Below are positions 2,697 to 13,451 of a stretch of 64,000 bases of DNA, piece by piece. The stretch comes from Minisyncoccia bacterium. Lineage in GTDB: Bacteria; Patescibacteriota; Minisyncoccia; JACQLN01. The notes beneath the pieces are model-generated. The model made no database searches, was not told where the DNA came from, and saw only the letters and a program-made list of their open reading frames with translations. The position numbers and the translations under genes were made by a program. The DNA is taken from the NCBI GenBank assembly GCA_049274895.1, contig JBASTM010000011.1, forward strand, positions 2,011-66,010. Reading direction: 5' to 3'. How positions within the stretch are numbered: position 1 is the first letter of the stretch; each line of letters opens with the position of its first letter.

Positions 2697-4430
2697 TTAT
2701 TCCTCCACTACCCTCAATACTTCTTCTATAGACACCAAGCCCACCAGCGCTTTCATTATACCATCCTGTTTCATAGTAATCATCCCCTGCCGCTGGGCTT
2801 CTGCGGCAATGGCAATTTCGGATATGGCCGAGCTTAAAATAATCTTTTCCAAACTGGGCGTCATTTCAAATATCTCAAAAATGCCCACTCGGCCTTTGGT
2901 GCCCTTAAAACCGCAAGCGGCGCAGCCCGGCGCCTCAAAAATCTGCCAGGGCTTTTTAAGACCGTATTTTTGCTGTTCGGATTCCGGCATATCTTTAAGA
3001 GCATCACTGACTATTTTTGAAAACTTGTCGGGCAGGGGCACTGGCTTGAAACATTCTTTGCACATTTTCTTTATCAATCTTTGAGCCATCCCGGCCACCA
3101 AAGTGGAAGGTATCAGGAAAGGATCTATATCCATATCCGCCAAGCGCGGAATAATGCCCAGGGAATCGTTGGTGTGCAATGTAGAAAAAACCAAATGCCC
3201 GGTCAGCGCGGCGTGGGTGGCCAGGCCCGCGGTTTCTTTGTCTCGGATTTCACCCACCATGATAATATTCGGGTCCTGGCGCAAAATACTGCGCAAGCCC
3301 GAAGCAAAAGTAAAGCCGATTTCCGGATGTATCTGGGATTGGTTTACGCCCGAAATGTAATATTCCAAAGGGTCTTCTAAAGTGATGATGTTGACGCCCT
3401 CTTTATTTAAAAAATTAAGCGTGGTGTAAAGCGTGGTAGATTTGCCCGAGCCGGTGGGGCCGGTGATCAGCACGATACCGTAAGGATTTTTTATGGATCT
3501 TTCATAGGTTTCCATATTTCTGCCTATTAAACCCAAATCAGCGAAGGTGCCCACGCCCACCGTGGGATCCAAAATTCTCAAGGCAATCTTTTCGCCAAAG
3601 GCGGTCGGCAGGGTTGACACCCTAAAATCAATTTTGCCGGAGCCGATCTTGGTGCTAAACCGGCCGTCTTGGGGCATGCGCGTCTCGTCAATTTTAAGAT
3701 TAGAAAGGACTTTGATGCGGCTGATGATGGCGTTATGCGCCTCGCGCGGCAGAATGATGGAAGAATGCAGAGTGCCGTCTAATCTAAACCGGACGCGGGT
3801 TTCGTTTTCCAAAGGCTCAATATGGATATCGGAGGCCTTGCCTTCCACGGCGTGGCGCAGAATGACCGCCACCACCTTGGTAATGGGCGCTTCGGCGGTT
3901 ATCTGTTCGACTTTCTCTGTGCGAGACTCGGCCACCGGCCCAACCTCCGAAACAAATTCCTGCTCCAATTCCTCCAAAGCACTGGTAACCTCCCGCCCCA
4001 AGTTGCGGTACTGCCGGGCCACAGCGTCAAAATCAGTGGCCGAGATAATATTGATTTTAGGTACAAAATTATTCTTAATGGCAATAAATTTAAGCGCTTC
4101 ACTGGCCTCAACATCTTCAGGGTTGACCATACCAATGGTAAGTTCATTGCTATTTTTTTCCACCGGCAGGATTTTGTAGTGTAAAACCGCATCCTCCGGA
4201 ATTTCCTGAAGCACCTCGGCCGGTATATTTTTATCAGCTAGATCAAGATAGGGCAGGCCCAAAATGGCGCTCTTGGCGCGCAAGATATCCAAAGGGTTCA
4301 CCCAATTGCGCTTTACCAATTCTGTCTCCAGGCCCGCCGCGTCGGCCGAAACCTGGAGAGACAGACTTTTGATCTGGCTTTCCTTCAACAAACCATTGTC
4401 TATTAAGTAAGCGAGTAATTTTTCTACCAT
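2697..4430 (-). CDS. pilB: Type IV pilus assembly ATPase PilB (GspE family)
   Basis: 577 aa with Walker A GPTGSGKSTT and an N-terminal GspE N-domain. A tetracysteine Zn motif (CKECF...CAACGF) is present. Confidence 0.9.
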   Translation of the reverse strand: MVEKLLAYLIDNGLLKESQIKSLSLQVSADAAGLETELVKRNWVNPLDILRAKSAILGLPYLDLADKNIPAEVLQEIPEDAVLHYKILPVEKNSNELTIGMVNPEDVEASEALKFIAIKNNFVPKINIISATDFDAVARQYRNLGREVTSALEELEQEFVSEVGPVAESRTEKVEQITAEAPITKVVAVILRHAVEGKASDIHIEPLENETRVRFRLDGTLHSSIILPREAHNAIISRIKVLSNLKIDETRMPQDGRFSTKIGSGKIDFRVSTLPTAFGEKIALRILDPTVGVGTFADLGLIGRNMETYERSIKNPYGIVLITGPTGSGKSTTLYTTLNFLNKEGVNIITLEDPLEYYISGVNQSQIHPEIGFTFASGLRSILRQDPNIIMVGEIRDKETAGLATHAALTGHLVFSTLHTNDSLGIIPRLADMDIDPFLIPSTLVAGMAQRLIKKMCKECFKPVPLPDKFSKIVSDALKDMPESEQQKYGLKKPWQIFEAPGCAACGFKGTKGRVGIFEIFEMTPSLEKIILSSAISEIAIAAEAQRQGMITMKQDGIMKALVGLVSIEEVLRVVEE

Positions 4431-4540
4431 GCCAATTTTATCTATGAGCGAAGCGAATAGCTATTAAATTGAGCACCCAGCACCTTTTCAAGGTAAAGAT
4501 ATTTATACATCTAAAAGGTGCTGGGTAAGGTTTGGCCGCC
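4431..4540 (-). promoter_or_regulatory. Leader-B element upstream of pilB
   Basis: The stem changes to CCCAGCACCTTTT / AAAAGGTGCTGGG. This is a compensatory T-A to C-G change relative to the copy at 2550. Confidence 0.65.
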
Positions 4541-5520: not shown

Positions 5521-6092
5521 TATTTTTTTGTAATAAAATCCTTGGAAAAATTAACAACTAAGGTAAAATCCACCCGCCCATCTTCGGCTAAGTTGATATT
5601 GGAAGCCGCAACTGAAACCACTTGGGGCGTATCTTCGAATATTTTTATCTGCTGGGCCAAAACCCCATAGCTGGGAGAGCGGCCCGTCAGTAAAAAAGAG
5701 GCATCAGTATCATCGCCATCAAAACTCTTGAACGCGACCGTATTCAAAGTTTTTTCTCCCAACATCTTAAAAACCTGCGACCAGTAGCGGTGGTTATCCA
5801 AGATATTCTTAAAAACTTCCAGAACATTATTAAGATTATTAAGCCGCGTCTCCAAACTCATATCTCTCTGGCTGGTCAGACGCTGAAGCTCGGTATTAAA
5901 AGAGGCCACCTCGCTGTTCAAACGATATTTCCAAAAGTAAAGCCCGGCTGTTACCGCCAACGCTACGGCGATAAGCGCCAAACCCAGCTTGGCCGTGGCG
6001 CTTAACTCCAGCGAGGGGCTCCGGAAAGTGACAAAGCGCGGCAAGCCCCGGCTGTTTTTTTCTTTTTTGGGTATTAAAGAGATGTTATCCAT
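5520..6092 (-). CDS. pilN: PilN-like pilus assembly protein
   Basis: 190 aa with a single TM (LGLALIAVALAVTAGLYFW) followed by a coiled coil. It follows pilM. Confidence 0.55.
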   Translation of the reverse strand: MDNISLIPKKEKNSRGLPRFVTFRSPSLELSATAKLGLALIAVALAVTAGLYFWKYRLNSEVASFNTELQRLTSQRDMSLETRLNNLNNVLEVFKNILDNHRYWSQVFKMLGEKTLNTVAFKSFDGDDTDASFLLTGRSPSYGVLAQQIKIFEDTPQVVSVAASNINLAEDGRVDFTLVVNFSKDFITKK

Positions 6093-6158
6093 GCCAATTT
6101 TGTCTATGAGCGAAGCCGAGCTCAGCTCGGCGAAGCGATAGATTCTTAGACAAAGCCC
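6093..6158 (-). promoter_or_regulatory. Leader-B-related element (start-proximal half only) upstream of the pilN-like gene
   Basis: Minus strand reads ...gcttcgctcatagacaaaattggc-ATG. Confidence 0.5.
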
Positions 6159-8538: not shown

Positions 8539-10680
8539 CTATTTGCGGCGGCCGGAAATTATTTCCTCGGCGATGTTTTTGGGCACCTCTTCGTAGTGGT
8601 TGAACTCCATCGTGTATGACGCCCGACCCTCGCTTAAAGAACGCAGTTGGGTGGAATAGCCGAACATTTCGGATAAGGGCACTTTGGCGTCTATAACTTT
8701 AAGCGCCGAATCGCCCACCGCGCTGGTGCCGCCCCGCGCCGCCATTTGCTCGATGCGGGCGCGTTTGGACGAAAGATCCCCGGTAACTTCGCCCAAAAAC
8801 TTTTCGGGCACGATCACCTCAACTTTCATTACTGGCTCCAACAAAACCGGGCTCGCCCTTTTAGCGCCTTCTTGAAAAGCTATACTGCCGGCGATTTTGA
8901 AAGCCATTTCCGAAGAGTCCACCTCGTGAAATGAACCATCATAAAGCGTGGCTTTAACATCAACCACCGGGTAGCCGGCCACCACGCCTTTATCTATCGC
9001 CTCTTTGATGCCTTTTTCCACCGCCGGAATAAACTCCTGCGGAATGGCGCCGCCTTTAATGGCGTTGACAAACTCAAACCCGGCGCCGCGATCCAGCGGC
9101 TCCAATTTTAAGCGCACGTGGCCGTACTGGCCGCGGCCGCCCGACTGGCGGATATATTTGCCTTCGGCCTCGGCCGTGCTTTTAACGGTTTCTTTGTAAG
9201 CTACCTGCGGCCGGCCGACGTTGGCATCCACCTTAAACTCCCGTTTCATACGGTCCACAATTATTTCCAAATGCAATTCGCCCATGCCGGCAATTAAAGT
9301 ATCGCCGGTCTCCTCGTCGCCTCTTATTCTAAAAGTCGGATCTTCATCGGCCAGGCGGCGCAAAGCCAAACCCATTTTTTCCTGATCGGCTTTGGTTTTG
9401 GGCTCAATCCGCACCGAGATGACCGGCTCGGGAAAGACTATCTGCTCCAGCAGTATCGGTTTGTCTTCATCTGAAAGAGTGTCGCCGGTTCGGGTGTATT
9501 TTAAGCCCACCGCCGCGCCGATCTCGCCGGCAAAAATCTCTTTGACTTCTTCGCGGTGGTTGGCGTGCATTCTTAAAATGCGTCCGATTCTTTCTTTTTG
9601 ATTTTTATTGACGTTCAGAACATAGGAACCGGCTTCCAGCGTACCTGAATAGACTCTAAAAAAAGTCAGTTGGCCCACAAAAGGATCACTGGCAACTTTG
9701 AAAGCCAAGGCTGAAAAAGCGACTTCGTCGCTAGCCGGGCGTTCCTCCGAAGCCCCGGTCTTGGGATTGACTCCTTTTACCGGAGGTAAATCTACGGGGC
9801 TCGGCAAATAATAGAGCACGGCGTCCAACATCAACTGCACACCTTTATTTTTTAAGGCCGAACCGCACAAAACTGGAATAAATTTACCGGCAATAGCGGC
9901 GGCCCGCAAAGCTTTTCTTAGTTCAACCAAGGTAGGTTTTTCCCCGCCCAAATAACGCTCCATCAAGACGTCGTCGGTTTCAACAACTTTTTCTACCAGT
10001 TCGGCCCGGCATTTTTCGGCTTCAACTTTCATATCATCGGGAATATCGGCTTCAATAACCTGCTCGCCGTGCTCGCCTTCAAAACGATAGGCCTTCATTT
10101 TCATTAGATCCACCACACCCTCAAAATTTTCCTCCAAACCGATCGGTAATTGGACTTTTACAGCTTTAGAGGTTAAGCGTTCTAAAATGGAAGCATAAGA
10201 TTTTTCAAAAGAAGCGCCGGTGCGGTCCAGTTTGTTTATAAAACAAATTCTAGGCACATTATATTTATCGGCTTGGCGCCAGACGGTTTCGGACTGGGGC
10301 TCCACGCCGGCTACGCCGTCAAAAACCACCACCGCGCCGTCCAAAACGCGAAGCGACCGTTCCACCTCCACCGTAAAATCAACGTGGCCGGGCGTATCGA
10401 TTATGTTAATACGCATCTCTTTTTCCTTGGTTTTGACCCCGCCGGCCCGATCTTCGGTCGGCGTCCAAAAACAGGTGGTAGCCGCGGCGGTTATAGTGAT
10501 GCCCCGCTCCTGTTCCTGTTCCATCCAATCCATGATGGCCTCGCCTTCGTGGACCTCGCCGATCTTGTGCGACACGCCCGTGTAAAACAAAACCCGCTCG
10601 GAAACGGTCGTTTTTCCGGCATCAATGTGAGCTACAATGCCAATATCTCTGGTGCGTTCGATGGGGTAATCACGTGACAT
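8539..10680 (-). CDS. fusA: Translation elongation factor G
   Basis: 713 aa ([25 protein letters not shown]...). GTPase G1-G4 motifs are present. Confidence 0.95.
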
Positions 10681-10810
10681 ATGCCAATTTTATTTACGAA
10701 CGAAGTGAGTAAATATTAAAATTGAGCACCCCGAGCGCAGTCGAGGGGTAATCCTTCGACCTAGCTCAGGATAAGGTTTTGTTACCGCTCGCTTCGCTCG
10801 CGGACAAAGC
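10681..10810 (-). promoter_or_regulatory. Leader-B-related element upstream of fusA
   Basis: Minus strand reads ...gtgctcaattttaatatttactcacttcgttcgtaaataaaattggc-ATG. Confidence 0.5.
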
Positions 10811-10812
10811 CC

Positions 10813-11280
10813 TTACCAACTAAAATGCGCGAAAGCTTTATTAGCTTCGGCCATGCGGTGGGTGTCGTTTTTCTTCTTGATGGCGTTGCCTTCGTTTTTG
10901 GCGGCCAAGATGATCTCCTCGGCCAGTTTCTGGTCCATGGGCTTGCCCTTGCCGGCCCGAGCCGCCAGAATAAGCCACCTCATCGCCAGAGCCAATTTGC
11001 GCTCGCCTCTCACTTCGCGCGGGACCTGGTAATTGGCGCCGCCAATGCGGCGGGATTTTACTTCCAGTTGGGGCGAAACATTTTTGATGGCTGTTTCAAA
11101 AACTTCCAAACCGGGCTTTTTCTCTTTCTGCTCTATATTATCCAAGGCCTGGTAAAAAATCTTCTGGGACACGCTCTTTTCCCCATGCTGCATTATTTTA
11201 TTAATAAACCGGGCGGCCAAAACACTGCCGTGTTTATAATCGGGTTTAATATCGCGTTTGATGTTTATTTTGCGTCGCAT
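10813..11280 (-). CDS. rpsG: 30S ribosomal protein S7
   Basis: 155 aa S7 family. Confidence 0.9.
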   Translation of the reverse strand: MRRKINIKRDIKPDYKHGSVLAARFINKIMQHGEKSVSQKIFYQALDNIEQKEKKPGLEVFETAIKNVSPQLEVKSRRIGGANYQVPREVRGERKLALAMRWLILAARAGKGKPMDQKLAEEIILAAKNEGNAIKKKNDTHRMAEANKAFAHFSW

Positions 11281-11355: not shown

Positions 11356-11766
11356 CTATTTGGGAGTCTTAGCCCCATACTTGCTCCGCCGCTGCTTGCG
11401 GCCCTCTACGCCGGTAGCATCCAGCAGGCCGCGCACAATGTGATAGCGGATGCCGGGCAAATCTTTAACCCGCCCGCCCCGCAAAATCACCACCGAGTGT
11501 TCCTGCAGATTGTGGCCGATGCCGGGAATATAGGCCGTCACCTCCATACCGTTGGATAATCTCACCCGCGCGATTTTGCGCAAAGCCGAGTTGGGTTTTT
11601 TGGGCGTCATCGTGCGCACCGAAAGGCACACGCCTCTTTTGAAAGGCGACTGGAAAGCGGAGTATCTGTTTTTTAAGCTATTGAACGCAAAAGTCAGCGC
11701 CGGCGATTTGGATTTGCGCTTGGAGGTTTTTCTTGGTCTTTTGATTAGTTGATTTATCGTCGGCAT
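11356..11766 (-). CDS. rpsL: 30S ribosomal protein S12
   Basis: 136 aa with the S12 family signature [10 protein letters not shown]...GHNLQEHS. Confidence 0.95.
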
Positions 11767-11774
11767 TGATTATA

Positions 11775-11806
11775 AAGGTCAGACCTTGCTAGCAAGGTCT
11801 GACCTT
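11775..11806. promoter_or_regulatory. 32-nt perfect palindrome 9 nt upstream of the rpsL start codon
   Basis: aaggtcagaccttgctagcaaggtctgacctt equals its own reverse complement. Confidence 0.7.
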
Positions 11807-11914
11807 GATCTTACTAGGACACATCGGATTTTAAGCTGAAATCATTATAGATTAAAACAGGCCTTGGCGCAAGAACCAGCATCTACCGAGCTTGCGGCCG
11901 CAACCTCGGTAGAT

Positions 11915-11967
11915 GAAATTAAATATAATAATAAAATGGGGTGAGCACGGTGTTTTGCGCTCACCCC
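11915..11967 (-). terminator. Rho-independent terminator (9-bp GC stem plus U-rich tail) closing the upstream structured RNA
   Basis: Minus strand reads ggggtgagc-gcaaaacaccgt-gctcacccc followed by auuuuauuauuauauuu. Confidence 0.7.
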
Positions 11968-12330
11968 TGACGTCGCCGACCCCCGAAGAGAAGAGGGTGT
12001 CGACTACTTGCTTGTTGAAATCCTTCGGGCCGGTTGAATTTATAGCTGTCTCAACCGGGGTCAATCTAAGTGGGAGCGGTATTTCACTGTCGGCTCCCTC
12101 CGACCCGGAAGTCGGAGCTCTAAGCCCAGCTTACTCTACGCGAAACTTAGATTCCCGTTGGGACCGGTGCGTGGGAATTGAACCCACCTATCTCGACTAC
12201 GTTCGCCTCCGAAGCCTCCGACTCCGATCTCTCCGCGTAGGCTCCCCCAGAGGCACATCGAGATAAACCGTCTGACACCGTTTCCATGCAAGCAAATAGA
12301 TGCTAGCAAAACATCTGGCCGAGGTCAATA
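11968..12330 (-). ncRNA. Structured non-coding RNA candidate of unassigned class (rnpB-like or a novel RNA)
   Basis: This is a 620-nt gap with no credible ORF. It contains multiple GC-rich helices and a T-loop-like hairpin gtggg-ttcaatt-cccac. It is bounded by an upstream 17-bp hairpin and a downstream intrinsic terminator. Boundaries are approximate. Confidence 0.35.
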
Positions 12331-12388
12331 GCAGATAAGACATCTAATAATGTTGAACATCCGATGTTCAACATTATTAGACTAATGA

Positions 12389-13006
12389 TCAAAACAACAA
12401 CGGGGAGCCGGTTATCAGCTGGAAGATTACGGGAATTATCGGAACTATCAAAGGAAACAAAAAGAAGATAAATATCAACACCAAAAACATACCATAACGC
12501 TCCAGTATAACGAGCTGGCGTTCGTAGCGGTAGGGCAAAACGGCGGCTAAAATTTTGGAGCCGTCCAAGGGCGGTATGGGAATTAAATTAAAAATACCTA
12601 AAAGGATATTGATGTAGACTATCAAAGACAACCCCAAGCCAGCCGCGGCCGGGATAGGCGCCCAGCGTAAAGCCAAACCAAAAAACAAGGCCACGGCAAA
12701 ATTGGACAAAGGCCCGGCCGCGGCCACGGCGGCCGGGCCCCATTTTTGATTTTTAAGATTATAGGGGTTATAAGGCACGGGCTTAGCCCAACCGAATATA
12801 AACCCGCCCGCGAGATACGAAATCAGCGGCACTAAAAACGAACCCACAAAATCAAGATGTTTGAGAGGGTTAAAACTTAGCCGGCCAAGGTCGCGGGCGG
12901 TGGGATCGCCTAACTTGTTAGCCGCAAGACCATGAGAAACCTCGTGCGCCACCACCGACATAATCAGCACCGCTAAATTGAAAATAAGCAATACCGTTTG
13001 ATCCAT
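12389..13006 (-). CDS. Site-2 protease family zinc metalloprotease (peptidase M50)
   Basis: 205 aa, polytopic. It has HEVSHG (HExxH) and the NLIPIPPLDG motif. Confidence 0.8.
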   Translation of the reverse strand: MDQTVLLIFNLAVLIMSVVAHEVSHGLAANKLGDPTARDLGRLSFNPLKHLDFVGSFLVPLISYLAGGFIFGWAKPVPYNPYNLKNQKWGPAAVAAAGPLSNFAVALFFGLALRWAPIPAAAGLGLSLIVYINILLGIFNLIPIPPLDGSKILAAVLPYRYERQLVILERYGMFLVLIFIFFLFPLIVPIIPVIFQLITGSPLLF

Positions 13007-13374: not shown

Positions 13375-13445
13375 GTCGGGCTGCGGGGAATCGAACCCCG
13401 GCTGCAAGACCCCCAGCCTCGCGTACTACCATTATACGACAGCCC
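13375..13445 (-). tRNA. tRNA-Pro (anticodon GGG)
   Basis: A manual cloverleaf fits. Acceptor is CGGGCTG/CAGCCCG with U8. D-arm is GTAT-AATGGTA-GTAC. Anticodon stem is CGAGG/TCTTG with loop CTGGGGG. T-arm is CGGGG-TTCGATT-CCCCG. Discriminator is A and CCA is not encoded. Confidence 0.75.
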
Positions 13446-13451
13446 GTTAAA

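Follow-up and report, generated by a model that had tools for sequence, protein, structure and literature searches.

The 622-nt spacer between a Peptidase_M50 gene and rpsL was analyzed in a Parcubacteria genome of the candidate phyla radiation (CPR), within a 64,000-nt stretch of contig JBASTM010000011.1 (assembly GCA_049274895.1) that is referred to here as the window and supplies all coordinates given without a locus name. The spacer (11767-12388) is bounded upstream by the Peptidase_M50 gene (12389-13006) and followed, on the minus strand, by rpsL, encoding ribosomal protein S12 (11356-11766), rpsG (10813-11280), and fusA (8539-10680); the neighborhood also includes a gene for L28 and one for tRNA-Pro, and the S12 protein is identical to one deposited at NCBI under "Minisyncoccia bacterium," with its closest relatives in Parcubacteria metagenome-assembled genomes. 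Within this spacer, we describe a minus-strand gene (11930-12296) predicted to encode a structured RNA of about 365 nt, with its 5' end placed from the -10 box of the promoter and its 3' end at the U-tract of the terminator. The anatomy of this RNA is solid: two modules, a tRNA-like three-way junction and a copy of the L1 stalk of 23S rRNA, are enclosed by a single closing helix, P1.

Homologues of the RNA were sought at loci located through S12 (in 80 genomes and by 11 protein look-ups) as well as in one metagenome pattern scan, and were recovered in four independent lineages only, namely, the window, locus L001 (positions 2553-2860; its S12 is 94% identical to that of the window), locus L089 (3424-3794), and a lineage comprising L085 (1418-1721) with the near-identical L090 and L091 (1194-1498 in L091), all three from Hainich groundwater samples (ERZ12926xx). 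The RNA is ~300-370 nt long across these homologues and, in every case, sits between a Peptidase_M50 gene and rpsL. Its promoter in the window (12300-12328, minus strand) consists of TTGACC and the extended -10 element TGcTAGCAT separated by 17 nt (9/12 matches, TG present); the layout TTGAC-N17-TGCTA(G/A)nAT is kept in L001, L089, and L085 and fits the pattern of the rpsL promoters of the same clade. The terminator (whole element 11930-11967, minus strand) is an 11-bp hairpin with 8 G-C pairs (11967-11938) followed by the U-tract ATTTTATTAT, and is conserved across the lineages, with two compensated pairs in L085. Both signals are retained in all four lineages. The minus-strand segment 12300-11925 folds at -152.4 kcal/mol (z = -4.06), a value matched by none of 100 shuffled sequences. 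A first-pass annotation of the window, made from the sequence letters and a list of reading frames, had proposed a structured minus-strand RNA ending in an intrinsic terminator at this site; the folding statistics, the promoter and terminator, and the compensatory changes among the four lineages bear out that proposal, with a small shift in the terminator coordinates.

The core of the RNA (12063-12153, minus strand) matches the large-subunit rRNA model of Rfam and comprises helices 76 (9 bp), 77, and 78 together with T-loops 1 and 2. A first Rfam scan of 1 kb of the window at E <= 10 produced nothing meaningful. When the homologues, which are shorter and nearer the consensus, were searched with cmscan, L089:3573-3664 cleared the gathering score of 50 on positions 2125-2216 of LSU_rRNA_bacteria, with 55.5 bits (E 5.7e-16), and L085 matched the identical model positions at 46.8 bits (E 3.6e-13); a narrower scan of the window placed 12141-12074 on the same model at 29.1 bits (E 1.5e-7), under the gathering score. 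Model positions 2125-2216 are those of the L1 stalk and run from helix 76 through T-loop 1 and helix 77 to a helix 78 in two parts and T-loop 2. The core of L089, compared with E. coli genomes by blastn, likewise matched the 23S gene at the position of the L1 stalk. Judged by these matches, the conserved core is a homologue (paralogue) of helices 76-78 of 23S rRNA. Because the L089 element passes the Rfam threshold for the large subunit, a partial 23S rRNA gene could wrongly be called there by annotation pipelines. The element of the window is not a segment of such a gene: it is flanked by the Peptidase_M50 gene and rpsL, has its own promoter and terminator, and is accompanied by no other rRNA match in the 64 kb.

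The resemblance extends to the nucleotides that form the head of the stalk. In the double T-loop of the L1 stalk described by Lehmann et al., hardly any variation is seen at the six nucleotides of the core (AG..A and UG..A), and the platform residues 2112 and 2169 stack on the G19:C56 elbow of tRNA (PMC3664808). All six T-loop nucleotides and both platform purines are kept in the five sequences compared, as are the motifs AGAAUA (AGAGUA in the window) and UGAAA, with the platform G two residues before T-loop 1 and the platform A as the apical residue of T-loop 2. The T-loop 1 region (12130-12141, minus strand), which reads GCGUAGAGUAAG in the window and GCGUAGAAUAGG in the other lineages, aligns to the consensus GuguAGgAUAgG of the large-subunit model and corresponds to 23S positions 2110-2119, including platform residue G 2112. 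The T-loop 2 region GACAGUGAAAUA, followed by the 3' strand of helix 77 (CCGCUC), lies at 12074-12091 on the minus strand and corresponds to 23S positions 2162-2178, including platform residue A 2169; in the model, T-loop 2 reads UGAaAUACC. The block GGAGCCGACAGUGAAAUA is invariant in 5/5 sequences. The 23S copy of E. coli LD93-1 (locus L101, positions 201-222) has GGAGCCGACAGCGAAAUACC in T-loop 2, which is nearer the Parcubacteria RNA, a reading that also explains GCCGACAG in other T-loop contexts; the K-12 version is GACCUUGAAAUACC.

The stems around these loops vary in a compensated manner, whereas the loops of the core are invariant. The distal hairpin of helix 78 (CUCCGACU-UCCG-GGUCGGAG; 12098-12117, minus strand) has 7/8 pairs changed on both sides with 100% of cells paired, and pairs changed on both sides were also counted in helix 76 (n = 4) and helix 77 (n = 3) over the four independent lineages. 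In the core as a whole, 96.2% of pair cells are paired and 17/42 pairs are changed on both sides, a combination reached by none of 500 shuffles; in slid controls, with partners moved by 1-3 columns, at most 47% of cells were paired and at most 3 pairs were changed on both sides. The lineages differ at 20-30% of positions, and the promoter, terminator, P1, and all helices are nevertheless retained. These pairing statistics over four lineages suggest, rather than prove, that the RNA structure is under selection, although the difference between unchanging loops and compensated stems is plain.

A match of this kind would also be expected if the RNA were a piece of a fragmented 23S rRNA, an L1 stalk supplied in trans to a 23S rRNA that lacks one. 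The L089 score exceeds the large-subunit gathering threshold for exactly helices 76-78, and the ribosomes of some CPR lineages are without parts of the L1 stalk region or without ribosomal protein uL1 (PMC9297842). However, the domain is closed on itself by P3 and P1, with no free strand to pair with the 23S body, its stalk helix is shorter than that of 23S and is joined to a tRNA-like domain, and relatives whose S12 is 91-93% identical lack the RNA in this slot; we rate this explanation as very unlikely.

The second module is a tRNA-like three-way junction (12165-12280, minus strand) composed of an acceptor-like stem (CGGUGU/GCACCG), a D-like strand (CAGACGG), a variable arm, and a T-arm, and it is the minimum-free-energy fold in 4/4 sequences folded alone. 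The T-arm, GUGGG-UUCAAUU-CCCAC (12171-12187, minus strand; 5 bp with a 7-nt loop), is the T-loop hairpin GTGGG-TTCAATT-CCCAC of the first-pass annotation, which missed both the complete junction around it and the L1-stalk homology of the core. Each of the three junction helices has at least one compensated pair. The acceptor-like stem is 5-6 bp long, and its pair 2 is G-C in the window and L001, G-U in L089, and A-U in L085; the variable arm shows three flipped pairs between L085 and the window; and the T-stem of L001 is kept with a compensated pair (GUGAG/CUCAC; G-C to A-U). Pair counts for this domain were made by hand; the MAFFT alignment misplaced L001 and L085. The T-loop is UUCAAUU in the window and L089 and UUCGAUC in L085 (GUGGG-UUCGAUC-CCCGC), and in L001, where the loop is AAUCGAA, the T-loop consensus (UUCRANY) is lost. 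The D-like strand of L001 has diverged as well (CCGAUGUG), and this joint divergence would be expected if the two elements interact as T- and D-loops do. The domain contains neither an anticodon nor an anticodon arm; in that place stands an arm of variable length, ~90 nt in the window and L089 and 7 bp plus UUCG (18 nt) in L085. The 3' strand runs straight into GUCC(C/U)A and P3, so that there is no free CCA end.

The two modules are joined and closed by helices that were delineated with RNAalifold on the five sequences combined with inspection. The closing helix P1 pairs 12299-12283 with 12019-12004 on the minus strand and consists, in the window, of 11 bp (CUAUUUGCUUG/CAAGCAAGUAG) plus 5 bp (UGGAA/UUUCA); it reads GGCAUGGAA/UUCCAUGCC in L001 and L089, and a closing helix is found in all lineages, in differing register. 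P3 (GUCC-CAA-CGGG/CCCG-AA-GGAU), predicted by RNAalifold, pairs 12154-12164 with 12020-12029 on the minus strand at the place of helix 75; its 8/8 pairs are invariant, and covariation speaks neither for nor against it. P8, the hairpin CCGGUUGA...UCAACCGG (12030-12058, minus strand), is preceded by the conserved linker UGAC, and occupies the place of helix 79; in L085 (CUGAUU/AAUCAG), two of its pairs are fully compensated, and its loop varies from 12 to 30 nt. P3, P4, and P8 share their topology with E. coli helices 75, 76, and 79. Between P1 and the terminator, a further hairpin (11972-12003, minus strand) is variable: L001, L089, and L085 each have a hairpin of different sequence at the same place.

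The first-pass annotation had considered a divergent RNase P RNA (rnpB) or a lineage-specific noncoding RNA of no known class, and these two suggestions fared differently. Of the Rfam models searched, those for RNase P, transfer-messenger RNA (tmRNA), signal recognition particle (SRP) RNA, and 6S RNA matched none of the three sequences scanned at E <= 10 (window, L085, and L089), the large-subunit L1-stalk match being found instead. The strings taken for the CR-I and CR-V elements of RNase P RNA lie on the plus strand, 2 nt apart (as opposed to ~250 nt in rnpB), and are antisense to helix 78 and T-loop 1, and the rnpB suggestion is not supported. No Rfam family covers the RNA as a whole, and its occurrence in four lineages agrees with a lineage-specific RNA of no known class. 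Searches of the literature on L1-stalk mimics, tRNA-like RNAs of CPR bacteria, and structured RNAs of CPR bacteria yielded no description of it. ARAGORN detected nothing in the spacer and only tRNA-Pro at 13375-13446, and the tRNA and tmRNA models of Rfam gave no significant match (best, tRNA-Sec at 15 bits, E 2.9, in L089).

Several further classes were rejected individually. SRP RNA is contradicted by the lack of a GNRA helix 8 and of an Rfam match. A flavin mononucleotide riboswitch was considered on account of the string GCCGACAGUGAAA, shared with B. subtilis ribD; there is no RF00050 match, and the string belongs to the T-loop context. For a T-box, there is no Rfam match and, by inspection, no conserved pairing alternative to the terminator. 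For a Y RNA, there is no match to the YrlA model of Rfam and no rsr among the neighboring genes, and P3 and the junction explain why GGUCC/UUGACC resembles a Ro-binding site. The 117-amino-acid (aa) open reading frame (ORF) of the plus strand and the ORFs of the minus strand are broken by stop codons in six-frame translations of the homologues.

That the gene encodes a divergent RNase P RNA, a tmRNA, or a missed protein is extremely unlikely. A length of ~365 nt would suit either RNA, the T-arm resembles that of the tRNA-like domain of tmRNA, and the specificity domain of RNase P also contains a double T-loop module (PMC3664808). Against these likenesses, the Rfam models had no match at E <= 10 in the three homologues searched, ARAGORN was negative, fitting by hand failed as well, and no P4 pseudoknot, which RNase P RNA would have, is present. 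Nor does the element have the features of tmRNA, whether normal or permuted: there is no G3:U70 (pair 3 is G-C), no CCA end, and no tag frame, the arm of L085 is only 18 nt long, and the acceptor strands flank the T-arm in the normal, not the permuted, order and covary. As for a protein, there is no conserved ORF, and a six-frame pseudo-protein made by concatenating the window, L089, and L085 had no match among 5.8 billion proteins, in line with the noncoding status assigned to the region in the first pass.

The position between the Peptidase_M50 gene and rpsL is a variable slot. The RNA is missing from it in relatives with 91-93% identical S12, and equally close relatives carry other contents, namely, a GIY-YIG ORF in L081, an Exo_endo_phos gene in L086, and ORFs of no assigned identity in L093 and L094. 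In L092, the slot holds an ORF for a 171-aa membrane protein, without a Pfam domain, behind a similar promoter; in L088, it is a short spacer, and in L098, a 316-nt spacer without the RNA. The doubt raised in the first pass, that the region might not be conserved in relatives, is thus answered in part: four lineages have kept the RNA, and relatives that are just as close lack it at this position. No second copy of the RNA was detected in the window, ~50 CPR loci, or 9 viral loci with nhmmer and the core covariance model R1, and three pattern scans of viral contigs gave no real match. A multi-copy or mobile RNA was rejected for lack of a second copy in the loci searched, and replacement of the RNA by a protein of the slot (for instance, a protein-only RNase P) was rejected on the nature of the L092 product, a membrane protein without a Pfam domain. 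Being single-copy, lineage-restricted, and patchy, the RNA appears to be accessory cargo of a hypervariable slot and not a housekeeping gene fixed at the locus. A small-ORF pair of the RelE/ParE type, resembling a toxin-antitoxin system, is also found among the slot contents of close relatives. The gap between rpsG and fusA varies too: a PDDEXK_3 ORF is present there in L081, L082, L083, and L092 and not in the window, and L089 has a 139-aa ORF at that position.

Such a slot could also harbor a captured fragment of 23S rDNA joined to a tRNA-like piece, nonfunctional and decaying, with the likeness to rRNA perhaps maintained by gene conversion. The hypervariability of the slot, the patchy distribution, the damaged helix 77/78 junction of the window, and the degenerate T-loop of L001 are all compatible with debris. 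On the other side stand the promoter, terminator, P1, and all helices kept in four lineages, with invariant loops and compensated stems; a helix 76 that is consistently about half the rRNA length and conserved P3 and P8 flanks, neither of which gene conversion from 23S would produce; and covarying tRNA-like stems for which there is no rRNA donor. On balance, we consider the debris explanation improbable.

The same position also invites the idea of a cis-acting leader or attenuator of rpsL-rpsG-fusA, in which a bound ribosomal protein or tRNA would set the choice between termination and read-through. In every lineage the RNA immediately precedes rpsL and is read in the same direction, an rRNA mimic is the hallmark of ribosomal-protein leaders, a tRNA-elbow platform occurs in stem I of T-boxes, and the sequence of the terminator is unusually well conserved. 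However, rpsL has its own promoter 3' of the RNA terminator (TTGCGC, 17 nt, TATAAT; 11844-11872, minus strand, as read from the sequence), and this promoter, with its leader hairpin, is also present in relatives without the RNA: TATAAT and the spacing are kept in L001, L085, L092, L096, and L098. The mimicked site is that of uL1, yet the operon encodes S12, S7, and EF-G, and neither rplK nor rplA was identified among the scanned ORFs near the RNA, most other ORFs of the window being unannotated. With rpsL, rpsG, and fusA downstream and a transcription unit of its own, the RNA is not the leader of a uL1 operon. No antiterminator pairing conserved across the four lineages was found, and no T-box or leader family matches; the pairing tried for an attenuator, between the 5' arm of the terminator and the 3' strand of helix 77/76, amounts to 7 bp in the window only and was rejected as not conserved. 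In L092, moreover, an unrelated protein gene takes the same position behind a similar promoter. The leader explanation is, in our estimate, quite unlikely.

The remainder of the spacer contains three hairpins that lie outside the RNA. Directly 3' of the Peptidase_M50 stop codon and upstream of the RNA promoter is a perfect 19-bp hairpin with a 3-nt loop (12342-12382, minus strand); the first pass had detected it and given it as 17 bp at 12337-12373. A related hairpin occurs at the same place after the Peptidase_M50 gene in L092, a relative without the RNA, and the hairpin of the window most likely marks the end of the Peptidase_M50 transcript. A second hairpin, with a palindromic GCGGCCGC loop (11881-11914, minus strand), is present as originally annotated between the RNA terminator and the rpsL promoter; it may act as another terminator or as a site for protein binding. 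L085, L001, and L089 have hairpins of different sequence at this position, and palindromic centers recur in them (CGATCG in L085, AACGGCGTT in L001). Finally, the rpsL leader contains a perfect 15+15 palindrome, AAGGTCAGACCTTGC-TA-GCAAGGTCTGACCTT (11775-11806, minus strand), 8 nt before the ATG. L001 and L092 have it unchanged, and L085, L081, L096, and L098 have it nearly so, relatives without the RNA included; it could be an autoregulatory site for S12/S7 or an operator. In L085, an insertion of ~113 nt (L085:1891-2003) sits exactly at the rpsL start codon. Its internal inverted repeats, and the ATGCCC repeated on either side as if by target-site duplication, give it the look of a miniature mobile element.

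The rpsL leader is without a Shine-Dalgarno (SD) sequence. Elsewhere in the window, a 20-nt leader, TCATAGATAAAATTGGCATG, ending in the start codon is present four times on the minus strand (2547-2566, 4428-4447, 6090-6109, and 10680-10699), against 0.01 matches expected; the genes that it precedes encode a response regulator, a T2SSE ATPase, a 190-aa ORF product, and, in a degenerate form, fusA. This leader may be an SD-independent signal for translation start.

We propose that the element is an independently transcribed, non-essential chimeric RNA that would act via contacts of the L1-stalk type, with uL1, the tRNA elbow, or both, a reading that we hold at about even confidence; expression, binding partners, docking in cis, and physiological role are all projected from sequence. 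The head of the stalk would offer a G:A stacking platform on which the G19:C56 elbow of a tRNA could dock, and the surface of helix 77/78 would bind uL1, a protein known to bind a 55-nt fragment of the L1-stalk region of rRNA and, for autoregulation, short mRNA mimics (PMC2175363). The platform would probably be occupied in cis by the tRNA-like elbow of the RNA itself or in trans by a cellular tRNA. P3, helix 76, and the acceptor/T stack are of similar length (~10-11 bp each), and a closed triangular arrangement is conceivable. In this capacity, the RNA would be neither a catalyst nor an mRNA leader; it would act as a decoy or scaffold, with uL1, tRNA elbows, or both as its partners.

Several observations weigh against this proposal. 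Only four lineages, all closely related, are available, so that the covariation carries little statistical weight and shared ancestry inflates it. The helix 77/78 junction of the window, the place where uL1 binds, has lost two nucleotides (GGGAG to UG--G), and this loss, together with a score of 29 bits, means that the binding of uL1 may not have been kept. In L001, the stalk head is retained although the T-loop consensus is gone, from which it follows that docking in cis would not be the sole role of the head. The equivalence of P3 and of helices 75/79 is one of topology only, since the alignment to the model goes no further than helix 76 and the pairs of P3 never vary. The patchy distribution is equally expected of neutral debris in a variable slot. 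Furthermore, a subgroup of Parcubacteria is without uL1, and it overlaps with lineages lacking the anti-SD motif (Tsurumaki et al., PMC9297842); SD-like motifs precede only 5/54 ORFs of the window, and 3 of those 5 are perfect, of the AGGAGG type. Such scarcity fits the SD-poor Parcubacteria subgroup linked to the loss of uL1 (PMC9297842).

A bolder version of the proposal, which we consider unlikely although worth stating, is that the RNA represents a fourth natural class of double T-loop receptors for the tRNA elbow, one with a tRNA-like ligand of its own, or an L1 stalk serving the ribosome in trans. As a fourth class, it would be a free-standing sensor or sponge for tRNA or uL1, in a CPR lineage in which L1 stalks are known to be remodelled, and the cis elbow would act as an autoinhibitory pseudo-ligand to be displaced by cellular tRNA or uL1. 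The double T-loop module is also present in RNase P, within the specificity domain, and in T-box stem I (PMC3664808).

Comparison with known systems places the chimeric RNA closest to the L1 stalk itself: helix 77, a helix 78 in two parts, the two T-loops, and a platform of the G2112:A2169 type are common to both, and the predicted three-way junction has the same topology. Unlike the 23S stalk, the RNA is transcribed from a promoter of its own up to its own terminator, lies between genes for proteins, and is present in some close relatives only; its helix 76 is 9-12 bp long versus ~18 in E. coli, and its stalk is fused to a tRNA-like domain and closed by the extra helix P1. In reproducing, outside the ribosome, the site at which uL1 binds 23S rRNA, it resembles the autoregulatory uL1 sites in mRNA. 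Those sites, however, are short (36-49-nt mimics of helix 77/78 in the leaders of L11/L1 operons), lack the T-loop head, and lie in the 5' untranslated region of the uL1 operon, whereas the RNA described here is a complete stalk encoded by a separate gene upstream of rpsL. Compared with T-box stem I and the J11/12-J12/13 module of RNase P, it is without a specifier loop, T-box sequence, antiterminator, or RNase P catalytic core, and the covariance match makes its module homologous to the L1 version, helix 78 included.

The tRNA-like domains of tmRNA and YrlA offer a parallel for the other half of the molecule, since they too have an acceptor-like stem stacked on a T-arm of canonical form, a GG-containing D-like strand that is left unpaired, and a helix in place of the anticodon arm; in YrlA, as here, the tRNA-like part is embedded in a larger RNA closed by a helix of the 5' and 3' ends. 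In contrast to these RNAs, the Parcubacteria RNA has no alanine identity pair, CCA end, or tag ORF, and no rsr, smpB, or rtcB is found nearby. We know of no tmRNA or Y RNA that carries an rRNA stalk.

Mimicry of rRNA is known from short sites in the leaders of ribosomal-protein mRNAs, and mimicry of tRNA from tmRNA, Y RNAs, and viral 3' ends. A complete L1 stalk with its tRNA-elbow platform beside a tRNA-like elbow in one independent RNA is a combination for which no earlier description was found in the literature searched. If expressed and folded as predicted, the RNA would constitute a compact natural model of the contact between the L1 stalk and the tRNA elbow outside the ribosome, and a new use of the double T-loop module. 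The proposed role, if true, would bear on the release of tRNA from the E site or on uL1 homeostasis in those Parcubacteria whose uL1 and L1 stalk have been lost or remodelled.

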